A stretch of 63,962 bases of DNA, counting the filler, from Reclinomonas americana ATCC 50394 (Eukaryota), in assembly GCA_048213135.1 (NCBI GenBank). It is 4 parts of 2 records of this genome, joined end to end, with 100 filler letters (N's around TTAATTAATTAA, not from the genome) between each part and the next. Parts side by side here need not be neighbours in the genome. Positions count along the whole stretch, not along the records: positions 1 to 25,672 come from PS015095.1; positions 25,773 to 51,442 come from PS015095.1; 2 more parts are not named here. The stretch is one strand, 5' to 3'. Each line of letters opens with the position of its first letter. The stretch's first letter is position 1. The notes beneath the pieces were generated by a model, which worked only from the letters and a program-made list of their open reading frames with translations, was not told the DNA's origin and ran no database searches. A program made the position numbers and the translations under genes. Shown in pieces: positions 13,231-41,841 of this stretch.

Positions 13231-15364
13231 ATGAGCGCACGCGCTGTATCCGCGGTTGCACCCTCGACATACATTGCGAATGATGCCACGGAGCTCGTCG
13301 GCAACACGCCTATGGTGTACCTCAACCGCCTCACCGCTGGTGCAGTGGCCAAGGTCGCCTGCAAGATGGAAAGCATGGAAGTTGTGTCCATGCATGCATT
13401 ATGCAAGAGTCACTGTGTGCTGCAGTGCACTCACACATGCTCTCCCTCATGTCTCTCTCTCGCTGTGCCCACACACACACAGCCGTGTTCATCGGTGAAA
13501 GGTGTGCATCTCTCTCTTCAATCTCTCTCTCTCTCTTTCTCTCGTCTCTCTCTGTTTGTGTGTGGTGACATGCACTGCAGATCGCACTGCAAAGAACATG
13601 GTGGACGAGGCAGAGCGTGCAGGCTTGATCACTCGCGGGAAAACGACTCTTGTGGAGCCGACATCGGGGTGCGGAAGAAAACTTCTCACTCTCTCTCATT
13701 TCTCTCTCTCACACACACACACTCTCCCTCTTCTCTCTCTGTGTGTGTCTGCAGCAACACGGGCATTGGGCTTGCCTTTGGTTGCGTTGTGTGTGTCTGT
13801 GCTATGAGTCAATGCATTGCCTCGACCCCGGTTAATAATGCGTCGGATCTTCGTTTCTTTCCGCACAGTGGCCGCCGCTCGGGGATACAAGCTGATCGTC
13901 AGTGCGTCCACACTCGTTCGCCCTCTTGTGAGCGATGCGCTGACTCATTGCATGTGCAGCGATGCCGCAGAGTGTGGCGCTGGAGAAGCGCATGCTGCTG
14001 CGTGCGTTCGGAGCCGAGGTTGTACTCACTCGTTGCGTGCGCAATAGGAGGTGCAGGTGGAGAAGGTGGGGAGATCGCTGACTGTGTGGCCAGCTAACGA
14101 GTACGGCATGCGAGGGTCGCTGGCCAAGGCCGAGGAGATACTCCGCTCCACGCTAGATGCGTTCATGCCGCAGCAGTTCCGGAATCCAGTGCGTTTTGTT
14201 TCTCCAACGCTGTTGTTGTTGTGTGGCCGTTGCTGTGCTGTGCTCACTGATGGTGGCTGCAGGCGAATCCTGGTGCTCACGAGACCACCACTGGCCCAGA
14301 GGTGCGTGTGAATGGCTCCGATTGCACTTCTGCTGTTCTGTTTCTCACGGCTCTCCTCCTCTTTCGCAGATCTGGGAGCAAACGGAGGTGAGCGTAGCGG
14401 CCTGTGGCAGTGTACACCTTTGCTCTCAACTGACGTGTGTCTTGCACAGGGCAAGATCGACATTTTCGTGTCAGCAGTCGGCACTGGCGGCACGGTCAGT
14501 GGCGTCGGCGGCTTCCTCAAGAAACAGAACCCCGACATTCGTGTCATTGGCGTGGAACCGAGCGAGAGTGCGGTGCTCAGCGGTACGTCGTGTTGCAGTT
14601 GCTCATGCTCGAGCTTGCATCTCATCATTGGAGCAGGCAAGCCTCCCGGCAAGCATTTCATCGAGGGCATTGGTACGCTCACTGGTGCACTGACTCACTC
14701 GCGAGAGCGTGCATCGTCTTTGACATTGTGGGCACAGGCGCCGGATTCATTCCCGACGTGTACGACGCCGACGTGGTGGACGAGATCATGACGTGCAGCT
14801 CGGAAGATGGTGTGCTTACTCTCGTTTACCCTCTCCACCTCTCATCCCCTTGTTCATCTTCCTCTTCTTCCTTCTCTTTTTGCCGCAGCCATGCAAGTGT
14901 CTCGCCGAATGGCCAAGGAGGAGGGCTTGTTCGTGGGTATTTCAGCAGGCGCTGCGGTCTGTTACTTCCTCCCCTCCTCTCTCTCTCTCCCATTCAGTGG
15001 CACACTCGGCTGAGACTGGTCGGTCGCTGCAGGTGAAGTGCGCGATCGAGGTGGCGAATCGACCGGAGAACGCCGGAAAGCTGATCTGCTGCATTGTGCC
15101 GTCGTTTGGCGAGCGATGTTGCGCGCATGCCTCTCTGTCCATTGCCCCGCGCGCCGCCATTCTCTCACCAACACGCGCAACCCCTTCACAGATCTCAGCA
15201 CGATCATGTACCGTTCATTGCGAGAAGAGGTCCGTGTGTTTTCATGTTGTCCCTCCCAGGTCCGTCGACAAAGAGACTCACACCTTGTCGATCGATTATC
15301 CTTCGTGGTGTGGCAGTGCCTAAACATGCCGGTGGCCGAGATTCGACCCACCGCCATGTTGTAA
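13231..15364 (+). CDS. cysK: cysteine synthase / O-acetylserine(thiol)lyase, CysK type (16 exons)
   Basis: Spliced motifs: [23 protein letters not shown] (PLP Lys), [76 protein letters not shown]. Confidence 0.96.
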
Positions 15365-15410
15365 AGCGGCGGCGTGCATAAAACACAATCGCTTGTTTCG
15401 CACACACACA

Positions 15411-15996
15411 TCATCCCTTCCGCCTCAGCTTCTCCAGGTACTGCTGATGGTAATCCTCCGCCAACCTGTGCACATGTTGGCAACAGGAGGGAGGCCGACG
15501 GAAGCCTCACACAAACAGACGCACCAATACGATGTGAACGATTCGATAAATGTCCGCACCGTCTCCCCGCGCGCTCGTCGCAGCGCAATCACATCCTGCG
15601 CCATTGTGCGCTGCTCGTCACTGGTGACAAACACGGACGAGCTTTTTCACAAGCCACACAGTCAGCCACAAGGCATCATGCATGATCTGCGCATGTGGCG
15701 TTGCGAACATACCGGTACTGACTGTCGGGTGCGTGCCACCGCGAGGGGTCGTGTCCCTCCAGAAACTTATCCACGAGCTCCACAAACGAGATGCGCGCCG
15801 GGTCAAACTCCACTCGCACAGTCTCCGCATGCCCCGTGTCGCCCTCACACACCTTGCACATATGCAATGAGATCAACCGCCAAAACAATCATCAATCACT
15901 GTCTCGCAGACGAGACACACAGACACGCACCTGTCTGTAGGTGGGATGCTCGAGGTGCCCACCAGCATAGCCAACACTCGTCTCCAACACACCATG
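15411..15996 (-). CDS. msrA: peptide methionine sulfoxide reductase MsrA (5' end in gap)
   Basis: GVLETSVGYAGG...[23 protein letters not shown]...HDP...QYRSSVF...WLAEDYHQQYLEK are diagnostic MsrA motifs. The GCFWG motif would lie in the gap. Confidence 0.93.
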
Positions 15997-39848: not shown

Positions 39849-39958
39849 GCAGTGATCGGGAGAGGCACACACAGACAGAAGAGAGACAGTGGCTTGGCCC
39901 CCCAAAAAAATACAGCATTGCGTAGTCTTGTGTTTCACCATTGTCGTTTCGACAAGTC

Positions 39959-41841
39959 TCATATGCGAAGCGGCGTCCAATGCAACAACTCTGGCTTCAC
40001 GTCCAGCAGCACCTTCTGTGCACTCGCGTGGAAATCCTCCAGTACCTTTGGTGACACGCTGAGAATGTGTTGTCCCTGCAGGCGTGCAAGTCAGGCCAAC
40101 TCAGCACAATGCACAAGTGAAATGCAACCAACAAACCTTCCAGTACTTGATCAACCTCAGCGACTGTTCAAACAAAAGTGAGTACTTGGAAACAAGCAGC
40201 AGGGACACCTGATTGAAACAACAGCAGACCTGGAATGTGTCGATGATATCGTCGGTGCGAATGGCCGTCATGTCCGACAGATCCTTGATTGAGAGGTTGC
40301 CTCTGCGAGCACCGCCACCACCACCACCGTGAGACGCACAGGAATGCATCTCTTTGCTGAGCGTAACAAACCTTGAATCACGCAGGATCTTGAGCAACTC
40401 CGACTTCCAGTACGAGCGATACGACAGGAAACCGAGATCGGAGAGTGGCCGCTCAGGTGTACCGATCTTGCCCTCCTTCTTGCTGAGCAAGTAGCTGAAG
40501 GAGATCAGGAAGCGTCCGTAGCCCTTGCGCTGGAACTGTGGGAAGGTGAGAATGCAGGCCAGATTGTAGCCTTCGCTCGAGCATTTTTCCTGCACCTCCA
40601 GTCAGTCACTCTCTCGCAAGACAGCCAACAATCCTCTCTCTTTCTTTGCCCATCCCACCTTGCTGAAATAGCCGACGACATGCGCGCCCTCGGCATCGCA
40701 CTCGCACAGCACGTAGAACAGGAACGGATCGACATCGTAGTACAGCGTCTTGTGGTCGAGGAACAGCTTGGAGATCTGCACATGCACACACGAGGGTTGA
40801 GCTGCGTGGCTGGCGAGAGCTGAAAGTCTCCAGCGAGGAGGCACGAACCAGGCACAGATTCTGACAGTAGGCCTTTTCCTTGCGACCGTCCACCTCGAAC
40901 ATGCTGATGTTGTTGTCGCGGTAGATCTCGTCACCCGGTGGATGTCTGCGGCAAGAGACACGCGCATAAGGCGACAATCGACCATCACCAGTACCATGCC
41001 ACTGGCTCAGCTCACCTCAAGCGGTACTTGGACATGTGTCGCAGCATGCGCTTCTCGCTGGTAAAGTACCGCAGCGAGTACTCACAGATCCACAACTTGG
41101 TGGCGCCCTTGGTGATCTCCTCGGGGTACGGCGAGTAGTACCACGTATCCACCTCGAACTTGCCAATCACAATCGTCTCAATGTTCTTCACCTTTGTCAG
41201 CTCCTCGTGTTCCTTCTCCGCCGCCGCCGTCTGCGGATCCAGAGTGCCCTGCATTCGACCACCACCAAACGCCCCGTGAGCACGCGAGATGAGCACATGC
41301 AGTCCACCACAGTAGAGCACGGAACATGTGCAGCACTGTTGAGCTCCTCGAAGCGTCGCTTCTGGTTGCGCGTCAGCTTCTTCTCCACCTGCACAACAAA
41401 CACATCAGCGTCGGTGCTTCTCCGACAACCGCTCCCTCAACAGCAGCAGCACCGACGCAACTCGATCATCGTCAAGATCCGCTTGCTGCGACGGATCCAG
41501 ATCCAACCACGCCACGTCCAGTCGATCAGGCGTCACCCACTCATCGAGACGCCGATTGGCTGCACAATCGATCAATCACAGTCGCAGAATGCATGCATGC
41601 ATCGACATACACACACACGCACGCAACTGCCATCGTAGTGCACATAGAACATGCGCTCATTGCTCACCACCTTGGTCTCCACCAGCTCACACATGTCTAC
41701 GCAAGACAGAGAGAGTGAGGGAAGGAGTATATAAGTGTTATGATTGTGTGCACGCGCGCAACGTCGTGTTCCATCGCGCCATCGACACGGCAACTTGCAC
41801 CCAACCACCAGTCGACTGTCCAGCGGAGCACTGCCACTCAT
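39959..41841 (-). CDS. MYST-family histone acetyltransferase (Esa1/Tip60/MOF/HAM-like, 11 exons)
   Basis: Chromo-barrel WRDG..H...[15 protein letters not shown], then KVKNI...[61 protein letters not shown] and [11 protein letters not shown]. Confidence 0.97.

Follow-up and report, generated by a model that had tools for sequence, protein, structure and literature searches.

Why should one class of 5' splice donor carry an extra T, and why should that class follow exons that do not end in G? The question arises in a window of 63,962 nucleotides from Reclinomonas americana ATCC 50394, the whole stretch of DNA that was analysed, which is intron-dense and gave a merged set of 153 introns. Ordinary donors make up ~73% of this set and read [A/T/C]G|GT-N-H-G-T (the bar marks the exon–intron boundary); a further ~27% (41/153) read GTTGCG(T), and these account for 55% of all donors with a non-G exon end. 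The hexamer GTTGCG occurs 97 times on the two strands against 66.8 expected (sd 7.8), a number reached in 0 of 100 shuffles. GTTGCGT, the form taken by 32 of the 41 donors, is the top non-repeat 7-mer among those beginning with GT; an order-2 Markov model predicts 13.4 occurrences, and there are 43 (z 8.1).

GTTGCG donors stand beside ordinary introns in the conserved CysK, TreS and MYST genes. The genes with homology-placed introns are:

4654-4960, plus strand: last two exons of IscU, with intron 4750-4825 (A|GTGCGT) between them; NifU_N profile positions 57-87 and 88-125 lie on the exons
13273-15229, plus strand: CysK (cysteine synthase) gene, 14 homology-placed introns, the first from 13381, by spliced alignment of six homologues
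35169-37770, plus strand: TreS (maltose alpha-D-glucosyltransferase) gene, 11 unambiguous homology-placed introns and 2 doubtful ones
39971-41850, minus strand: MYST histone acetyltransferase gene, 9 unambiguous homology-placed introns and 1 ambiguous one, by spliced alignment of five homologues

The CysK junctions are identical from five of the six homologues, the other differing at a single acceptor, and the exons give PALP Pfam matches. The MYST gene has Pfam matches to MOZ_SAS, zf-MYST and Tudor-knot, and its best matches are from green algae. The TreS models were built by tblastn and spliced alignment to P0002, P0006 and P0009. In the tblastn search the bacterial TreS HSPs break off precisely at 36131 and 36583 and start again at 36269 and 36643, and the residue numbering runs on unbroken over both gaps (207|208 and 311|312). 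The range given by an earlier, sequence-only reading of this DNA runs from the start of the first CysK intron (13381) to a GTTGCG donor of the MYST gene (41762).

The introns were rebuilt without any exon base as a signal. Spliced alignment to homologues placed 35 introns in TreS, MYST, CysK and IscU (9 with GTTGCG and 26 with other donors), using only GT/GC..AG and protein similarity. The other 118 of the 153 come from our own gene finder alone, which scores intron-side signals only: exon bases enter none of its scores for donors, acceptors or length. Its GTTGCG class was hand-seeded. On CysK, a gene outside its training, it found 10 of the 14 introns exactly, and 10 of its 13 calls in the CysK range were exact; across all homology ranges the figure is 28 of 34 calls, and overall it is about 77-82% exact. 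Two junctions could be placed either way, one at 35670 or 35691 and the other at 41325 or 41307. The nine GTTGCG donors placed by the spliced aligner, three each in TreS, MYST and CysK, are listed here with one variant donor of CysK:

13381-13386, plus strand: GTTGTG donor after A, with G at +6 and not +5, CysK, homology-placed
13781-13786, plus strand: GTTGCG donor after G, one of three exceptions, CysK, homology-placed
14032-14037, plus strand: GTTGCG donor after C, CysK, homology-placed
15118-15123, plus strand: GTTGCG donor after T, CysK, homology-placed
36132-36137, plus strand: GTTGCG donor after C, TreS, homology-placed, HSP end 36131
36584-36589, plus strand: GTTGCG donor after T, TreS, homology-placed, HSP end 36583
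37383-37388, plus strand: GTTGCG donor after A, TreS, P0006 exon end 37382; the gene finder concurs on 37383, and two other homologues took GC or a later GT 3-5 bases downstream
41757-41762, minus strand: GTTGCG donor after C, MYST, homology-placed
41622-41627, minus strand: GTTGCG donor after A, MYST, homology-placed
41456-41461, minus strand: GTTGCG donor after A, MYST, donor common to two homologue models, acceptor 41389 from the gene finder

The gene finder supplies the following GTTGCG donors, on its calls only except at 21404-21409, where an Arm profile spans the junction:

8090-8095, minus strand: after T (216-nt intron, less sure)
11908-11913, plus strand: after G
12805-12810, plus strand: after C
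16873-16878, plus strand: after T
17799-17804, plus strand: after A
20374-20379, minus strand: after A
21404-21409, minus strand: after C, Arm-repeat gene, profile positions 2-22 on the upstream exon and 25-40 on the downstream exon
22864-22869, minus strand: after A
23007-23012, minus strand: after T
23205-23210, minus strand: after C
23517-23522, minus strand: after T
25218-25223, minus strand: after A, RabGAP-TBC gene
27056-27061, plus strand: after T, fn3-repeat gene
27253-27258, plus strand: after C, fn3-repeat gene
27798-27803, plus strand: after T, fn3-repeat gene
29991-29996, plus strand: after A, fn3-repeat gene
32050-32055, plus strand: after A, fn3-repeat gene
38808-38813, plus strand: after T
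44139-44144, plus strand: after A
45067-45072, plus strand: after A, acyltransferase gene
45141-45146, plus strand: after A (269-nt intron, less sure)
45777-45782, plus strand: after T
46657-46662, plus strand: after T
46908-46913, plus strand: after T
47242-47247, plus strand: after T
47431-47436, plus strand: after C
53433-53438, plus strand: after G
53759-53764, plus strand: after T
55563-55568, plus strand: after C
55925-55930, plus strand: after T
58040-58045, plus strand: after C
59428-59433, plus strand: after C

The window contains two donor classes, whose boundaries are exactly placed in four genes, and donor class is genuinely and strongly coupled to the last base of the exon. The sequence-only reading had claimed that the donors with the extra T follow non-G exon ends, and so they do: across the merged 153 introns G stands at -1 in 3/41 GTTGCG donors versus 81/112 of all others (Fisher 1.8e-13). 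On recount its 38 GTTGCG donors (T15 C10 A9 G4) became 41 (A12 C11 G3 T15), and its 33 ordinary donors of four genes (G29 A4) became 26 unambiguous homology-placed donors outside the GTTGCG class (G21 A5, no pyrimidine). The exceptions it named recur in the gene model as T|GTGAGT at 53886, C|GTGAGT at 54816, C|GTGCGT at 55121 and T|GTGCGT at 58773. The coupling is found in the homology-placed introns alone (1/9 versus 21/26; p 4e-4), in the genes without homology models (2/32 versus 60/86; p 1.8e-10) and when stratified by gene (Cochran-Mantel-Haenszel, 10 informative strata, p 2e-10). It is present in all three intron phases and so is phase-independent.

The intron side of the two classes differs by one position. 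Ordinary donors with -1G have G at +5 in 92% and T at +6 in 73%, whereas GTTGCG donors have G at +6 in 100% (by definition) and T at +7 in 80%, so that the motif looks shifted by one base; when the two are offset by one base, |GTTGCGT and G|GTGCGT agree at 6 of 7 places. Among donors starting GTT, -1G is found in 17/19 with G at +5 versus 3/46 with G at +6 only (p 9e-11), and the five rarer GTT-NNG variants (GTTGTG twice, GTTGAG, GTTCCG and GTTACG) all follow a non-G base. The canonical strong motifs GTGCGT and GTGAGT have -1G in 20/31 versus 3/41 for GTTGCG (p 3e-7), which argues against plain compensation and against a bulged T in the canonical register. In 11/31 these canonical donors nevertheless have a non-G exon end, and therefore the shift is not the sole escape from the G constraint. 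The -1 composition of GTTGCG donors is close to the -2 composition of ordinary donors (A30 C20 G7 T24; p 0.80). This mirror is not decisive: the same composition does not differ from that of neutral exon sequence before GTT (chi-square p 0.33) and departs only from a broader 'before GT' background (p 0.011). The corresponding mirror downstream, +9 of the GTTGCG class against +8 of ordinary donors, fails (p 7e-4).

The reading to which we give an even chance is that two kinds of GT-AG donor share the same kind of 3' end, with GTTGCG(T) paired in a +1-shifted register. Ordinary donors would depend on exonic -1G together with +5G and +6T, and GTTGCG(T) donors would present the same core one base deeper in the intron (+6G and +7T), with an extra T at +3. 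A donor-measuring RNA, most simply the 5' end of U1, would pair with them in the shifted register, intron G+1 filling the slot normally held by exon G-1. The ACAGA box of U6 would follow U1, the +3 U being looped out. Cleavage would still fall directly before GT, and the last exon base would be left unconstrained. We infer both the shifted pairing and the snRNA that may perform it. A register shift had been proposed from the sequence, and the coupling, the displaced G/T pair and the flip among GTT donors favour it, although the duplex it would form with U1 is weak and the downstream mirror fails. The further idea that the shift frees exon ends agrees with the rarity of -1G in the GTTGCG class and is tempered by the canonical donors that also lack it.

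Shifted-register sites in human are rare and atypical. The GTTGCG class here, known from sequence alone, comprises 41/153 donors and is nearly invariant (T at +7 in 80%), and it has C at +5, where canonical U1 pairing would favour A. Human U1 is established to pair in both shifted and bulge registers, according to the relevant sections of Tan et al. (2016, PMC4856993, citing Roca and Krainer 2009), whose table includes the shifted-register example ACA|GUCAAGUAUA. As described there, such sites resemble the GTTGCG class in that the consensus match improves when every pair moves one position, G+1 stands in for G-1 with cleavage before GT, and an extra pyrimidine follows GT. The bulge registers in the same account loop out a nucleotide at +3 or +2, and GT-T-GCGT can likewise be read as GTGCGT if its +3 T is taken as a bulge. 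In that register, however, G-1 stays opposite U1 C9, so -1G should stay favoured, and it is found in 3/41.

With the canonical U1 5' end and fixed pair sets, the shifted register comes to +0.4, the +3 bulge to +2.2 and the canonical register to +2.6 kcal/mol; in free duplex prediction with CCA|GUUGCGUGC the minimum-energy duplex is the shifted one, at -2.5 kcal/mol. The predicted shifted duplex varies with the exon end, from -0.6 (U or C at -1) through -2.5 (CCA|) to -2.9 kcal/mol (G at -1); the comparison duplexes G|GUGCGU and A|GUGCGU reach -6.7 and -3.2 kcal/mol. Because the shifted duplex is weak, U1 pairing by itself does not account for GTTGCG being more common than any other donor after a non-G base. 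A much stronger duplex, at -6.9 kcal/mol, is predicted for A|GUUGAGU, yet GTTGAGT occurs only 9 times and yields 1 predicted donor, whereas GTTGCGT occurs 43 times and yields 32. No register of canonical U1 pairing accounts for the invariant C at +5.

That C, together with the rarity of GTTGAGT, would fit a dedicated reader, and it lends weight to a second explanation, which we hold to be possible but on balance improbable: GTTGCG(T) may simply be a strong intron-side motif used in the ordinary register, with -1 drifting to neutral by general 5'/3' compensation. Donors with a strong intron side would need no -1G (seesaw linkage), and the motif might be read with its +3 U bulged, by U6 or some protein factor, or by a dedicated variant of U1 that is complementary to GUUGCGU. 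The neutral -1 composition agrees with this, as does the wide occurrence of two anti-correlated donor classes reported in the review PMC11732430. As outlined in that review by Parker and colleagues and in eLife 2022 (PMC9803359), the two major 5' splice-site classes are AG//GUNNN, tied to U5 loop 1, and NN//GURAG, tied to the U6 ACAGA box; as here, exon -1G and the intron-side consensus are anti-correlated, and one class tolerates any exon end. Set against these descriptions, however, the exon-defined class here keeps +5G in 92% of its -1G donors and so is not GUNNN, and the intron-defined class is mostly not GTRAG-like in the ordinary register but carries the extra T. A bulged T or an ordinary register also predicts that -1G should still help, at odds with the difference between GTGCGT/GTGAGT and GTTGCG, and among GTT donors it is the position of the G, +5 or +6, that decides whether -1G is required.

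The coupling could also be historical, if a mobile or copied, introner-like intron family had brought its own donor and inserted where no terminal G stood. The uniformity of the donor would suit such an origin, as would the repetitive fn3 gene, in which 5 of 6 predicted introns belong to the GTTGCG class, and introner families with typical donors are known in green algae (as described in part by Verhelst et al. 2013, PMC3879977). We nevertheless consider it very unlikely: all-against-all blastn of 153 gene-finder introns returned 10 matches, each a short low-complexity run of GT or CT, and none joined two GTTGCG introns; across the 153 introns those with GTTGCG do not differ from the others in acceptor profile, branch-like motifs, length, composition or phase; and the class sits beside ordinary introns in CysK, TreS and MYST. 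The slightest probability of all goes to an artefact of ascertainment, in which GTTGCG was picked wherever present and ordinary donors were picked through G|GT. The first calls were made from sequence alone, and the gene finder's hand-seeded class and imperfect accuracy leave room for this; its scores, however, contain no exon base, and the difference persists in the introns placed by homology. False GTTGCG calls would moreover bring in the composition of non-donor occurrences (-1G in 14/56), diluting the effect rather than creating it, and ordinary donors have -1G in 35/50, 28/38 and 16/25 in the three phases (64-74%) against 19-38% G in the coding background.

The pattern is real, and it is a variant of known 5'/3' compensation and shifted-register donors. 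Mamiellophyceae offer a further comparison, their canonical donors being AG|GTGCGT with an NCTGAC branch point in the pertinent parts of Verhelst et al. (2013, PMC3879977) and Irimia and Roy (2008, PMC2483917). Those parts of Verhelst et al. make no mention of a GTTGCG class, and by comparison with these algae the intron density here is far higher and CTGAC is present in only 26/153 introns. Ordinary donors here resemble theirs in their G|GTGCGT/GTGAGT character, and in some introns CTGAC lies near the 3' end.

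Most 4-kb bins of the window have a GC content of about 0.50-0.63, and short exons and very short introns are densely packed across it. Rfam searches at gathering thresholds returned 0 matches in the window, snRNAs included. The genes were identified with Pfam on open frames and exons:

Genes of the window identified with Pfam
about 3.1-5.0 kb, + strand, IscU
7.7-10.9 kb, - strand, calpain
13.3-15.4 kb, + strand, CysK
19.4-23.6 kb, - strand, Arm-repeat gene
24.6-25.7 kb, - strand, RabGAP
26.8-34.4 kb, + strand, fibronectin-III repeat gene with 2-kb exons
35.2-37.8 kb, + strand, TreS
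40.0-41.9 kb, - strand, MYST acetyltransferase
within the window, Myb gene
within the window, acyltransferase gene
right end of the window, WD40 gene

The hexamer GTTGCG occurs 97 times in the window against 66.8 expected, a count reached in 0 of 100 shuffles, and GTTGCGT (13.4 expected) is the most over-represented non-repeat 7-mer beginning with GT. Its use as a donor can be followed in TreS, where tblastn matches to bacterial proteins end at 36131 and 36583, immediately 5' of GTTGCG, and restart at 36269 and 36643 with residue numbers contiguous across 36131|36269 and 36583|36643. Spliced models were made with a protein-to-genome aligner whose knowledge is limited to GT/GC..AG and BLOSUM62. 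Three homologues agree on the TreS model except at the last two junctions, the central junctions of MYST are common to five homologues, and the CysK model is identical from five of six. Pfam profile coordinates confirm a junction in IscU (87|88) and, at GTTGCG donor 21409, one in the Arm-repeat gene (22|25). With the ambiguous 35670 or 35691, the ambiguous 41325 or 41307 and the doubtful 37593 left out, 35 unambiguous homology-placed introns remain. Nine have GTTGCG donors, and at each of these the exact exon-intron boundary places cleavage at the normal GT. The sequence-only reading ran from 13381, the first CysK intron, to 41762, the first MYST GTTGCG donor. Some homologue alignments favour GC donors at 37386 and 41482, with GT alternatives adjacent. 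For the acyltransferase gene, which has seven GTTGCG donors, there is no homology model because an exhaustive search with its exon 46122-46436 gave only two weak homologue matches (E 4e-4 and 1e-3).

The remaining introns come from a Viterbi gene finder that combines codon usage, GT..AG introns and a prior on intron length with an acceptor matrix and a donor matrix of two components, of which the GTTGCG one was seeded by hand. Signal scores cover intron bases +3 to +10 and -30 to -3, exon bases being unscored as signal; the TreS and MYST introns, together with the program's own predictions, served to train the signal models. When signal models were absent, or a single self-trained donor matrix was used, the program settled on GTGTGT runs and recovered 1 of 3 known junctions; seeded classes with no length prior led to skipped short exons, and runs lacking both a length prior and a second donor class misplaced many junctions. 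Genes with a score of at least 5 contained 153 predicted introns. In CysK, which lies outside the training set, 10 of the 14 homology-placed introns were recovered exactly and 10 of 13 calls were exact; across all homology ranges, exact calls numbered 28 of 34. In the merged set, homology models replace the gene-finder calls in their ranges, so that 35 homology-placed and 118 predicted introns again give 153. The introns are confined to a narrow range of lengths (median 68 nt, 5th-95th percentile 55-107, n = 153), and retention would break the frame or add a stop for 34 of the 40 GTTGCG introns of known phase and for 95 of 107 others.

The choice of donor class is coupled to the last exon base. 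G at -1 precedes 3 of 41 GTTGCG donors (A12 C11 G3 T15) and 81 of the 112 other donors (A13 C6 G81 T12; Fisher 1.8e-13). This confirms the coupling claimed in the sequence-only reading, whose counts (38 GTTGCG donors with T15 C10 A9 G4, and 33 ordinary donors with G29 A4) are closely matched here; the exceptions to the -1 rule that it listed recur in the present gene models. The homology-placed introns alone show the same (1/9 versus 21/26; p 4e-4), as do the genes without homology models (2/32 versus 60/86; p 1.8e-10), and a gene-stratified test gives p 2e-10. By gene, -1G stands at 0/7 GTTGCG versus 5/7 other donors in the acyltransferase gene, 0/6 versus 8/9 in the Arm gene, 1/6 versus 15/24 in the 51.5-59.9 kb gene, 0/3 versus 7/8 in TreS and 0/3 versus 6/6 in MYST. 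The coupling is present in all three phases (other donors with -1G: 35/50, 28/38 and 16/25), and the coding background of 19-38% G is far under the -1G rate of the other donors. An extra G|GTTGCG candidate at 21697 (-), which shares its acceptor with the rival predicted donor 21724, would make the count 4/42.

Beyond the exon base, the classes are set apart by the place of the conserved G. In ordinary -1G donors the base varies freely at +3 (G 49, T 21, A 15, C 13%) and likewise at +4, whereas G is kept at +5 in 92% and T at +6 in 73%. The GTTGCG donors keep a G at +6 and have T at +7 in 80%, mirroring the +5G/+6T of the ordinary class. Donors that start with GTT and have G at +5 (GTTCGT, GTTTGT and similar) carry -1G in 17 of 19 cases, against 3 of 46 for those with G at +6 and not +5 (GTTGCG together with two GTTGTG, GTTGAG, GTTCCG and GTTACG; p 9e-11); the -1G rule therefore tracks the position of the conserved G and not the T at +3. 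The canonical strong motifs GTGCGT and GTGAGT have -1G in 20 of 31, versus 3 of 41 for GTTGCG (p 3e-7). In base composition, position -1 of the GTTGCG class is equal to position -2 of ordinary donors (p 0.80), and it also fits neutral exon sequence before GTT (p 0.33). Downstream the mirror breaks, GTTGCG +9 differing from ordinary +8 (p 7e-4). Across the 153 introns, no difference between the classes was found in acceptor profile, CTGAC-like motifs, length (medians of the two classes 70 and 67.5), interior composition or phase.

Several readings of this pattern were weighed. U12-type introns, spliced by the minor spliceosome, have RTATCCTT donors and a distinct branch motif; here the donor is GTTGCG and the introns match the others in acceptor profile, branch-like motifs and length, and this reading was rejected. 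An introner or repeat-intron family was likewise rejected, as GTTGCG introns show no similarity along their length in the 153 introns of this one window: blastn among the 153 gene-finder introns gave 10 matches, all in low-complexity GT or CT runs and none between two GTTGCG introns. Annotation artefact was rejected as an explanation too. The best single explanation is a register shift, which is partly supported and to which we give roughly an even chance. The GTTGCG donor would be read one position further into the intron, with G+1 standing in for G-1 and cleavage still just before the GT; the shifted core might be read by U1, by an altered or additional U1, or by U6 with a U looped out. The move of the G/T pair by one base and the loss of the -1G preference fit this reading, as does the exon side, where -1 of the class is composed like -2 of ordinary donors. 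The 7-mer likeness pointed out in the sequence-only reading holds, |GTTGCGT being G|GTGCGT save at the second place, one base out of register. As to the shift proposed there, the core at +6/+7 and the lost exon preference bear it out, but canonical U1 pairing is weak and leaves the +5 C unexplained. A reading with no shift, in which GTTGCG would be recognized by U6, through a bulge or by a reader of its own, we consider less likely. A bulge at +3 keeps -1G in the helix and therefore predicts a -1G preference, which is absent: -1G is seen at just 3 of 41 GTTGCG donors versus 20 of 31 GTGCGT/GTGAGT donors.

Pairing energies bear on who would read the shifted register. CCA|GUUGCGUGC pairs best with the canonical, unmodified U1 5' end in the shifted register, at only -2.5 kcal/mol; shifted duplexes range from -0.6 to -2.9 kcal/mol, U or C at -1 giving only -0.6, all for a canonical U1 that may not be the organism's own. 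The same 5' end gives -6.7 kcal/mol with G|GUGCGU, -3.2 with A|GUGCGU and -6.9 with A|GUUGAGU. GTTGAGT is rare, with nine occurrences and one predicted donor versus 43 and 32 for GTTGCGT, and among non-G donors there are 38 GTTGCG versus 7 GTGCGT and 4 GTGAGT. Canonical U1 pairing explains neither the invariant +5 C nor this predominance of GTTGCG over GTGCGT. The invariant +5 C hints at an adapted reader, e.g. a changed U1 5' end or a second contact by U1 or U6. Should the organism's U1 5' end prove to be changed or duplicated, an snRNA and the splice code would have evolved together, which is rarely seen. Tentatively, and at somewhat less than an even chance, the lineage as a whole may possess a second donor grammar in which about a quarter of introns are out of register, with G+1 in the G-1 slot and the key G at +6. 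Such a grammar, if true, would free the final base of the exon from a constraint on coding.

Donor recognition is usually described as one consensus with compensating halves, and an out-of-register donor is a rare oddity in human. To our knowledge, work on how register and cut site are set has so far used minigenes and a few dozen sites in human. In Tan et al. (2016, PMC4856993), a shifted register is known for a few human sites, with the +3 bulge as the known alternative; the GTTGCG layout matches shifted-register U1 sites, as moving it by one base improves its fit to the consensus. That -1G and the intron side are anti-correlated is textbook knowledge, described in PMC11732430 as GENSCAN 5'/3' compensation, as seesaw linkage and as AG//GUNNN and NN//GURAG classes. 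The GTTGCG system resembles these two classes in that anti-correlation (3/41 versus 81/112); unlike the AG//GUNNN class, with its relaxed intron side and any base at +5, the -1G donors here have +5G in 92% and +6T in 73%. G|GTGCGT donors and CTGAC branch points are typical of the Mamiellophyceae green algae (PMC3879977); the strict NCTGAC branch point given there contrasts with the window, where CTGAC lies 5-50 nt from the acceptor in just 26 of 153 introns. Among the papers listed by string searches of the literature, with logos, supplements and the organism's own genome paper outside their range, none described an abundant near-invariant GTTGCG(T) class with a conserved +6 G and no exon requirement. 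When metagenomes were scanned using one MYST exon, 37 loci at 38-90% identity were found; GTTGCG donors occurred in none of the seven modelled, none of which was close enough for comparison of orthologous introns. The class should interest splicing specialists: a genome whose conserved G lies one base deeper in the intron, with the exon requirement off, in about 27% of donors would be a natural large-scale test bed that would show how U1, U5 and U6 set register and cut site. Annotation is affected as well, since GTTGCG introns would be overlooked or wrongly bounded by gene finders whose training used G|GTRAGT-like models.

Other features of the window may be recorded. It holds 3469 N in 15 runs. 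A pattern of 44 N, 12 bases and 44 N appears three times, at 25673-25772, 51443-51542 and 59863-59962, the filler between its joined parts, and longer runs of up to 884 N lie within an AT-rich block at 48-52 kb (GC 0.375). The longer runs are masked or withheld sequence, possibly of one repeated element. The fibronectin-III gene (26836-34369, +) has three exons of ~2.0-2.2 kb, versus mostly 20-500 nt for other exons of the window, an odd codon composition (GC by codon position about 0.5/0.6/0.8) and GTTGCG in five of its six predicted introns. At 51544-59860 (+), ~6 kb of predicted coding sequence is divided by 30 introns; its exons (28 searched, E up to 0.05) gave no credible Pfam family, the few marginal matches falling far under cut-offs. 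Either a single large gene specific to the lineage or several genes fused by the gene finder may lie here.

MYST has its closest relatives, about 60% identical, in land plants and green algae, and the relatives of CysK are plant-like. The best relatives of TreS (maltose alpha-D-glucosyltransferase; 35169-37770, +) are bacterial, with 54-56% identity on one exon and names including Chloroflexi and Anaerolineae, yet 11-13 spliceosomal introns interrupt the gene, which has the look of an early acquisition from bacteria, now fully intronised. Directly 3' of IscU, at 4880-5574 (+), a 16-base junction string (agaata|GTGCACAGTG) occurs at 4953 and 5252, 299 bases apart, and the 3' ends are likewise similar, which suggests a tandem duplication just downstream of that gene.
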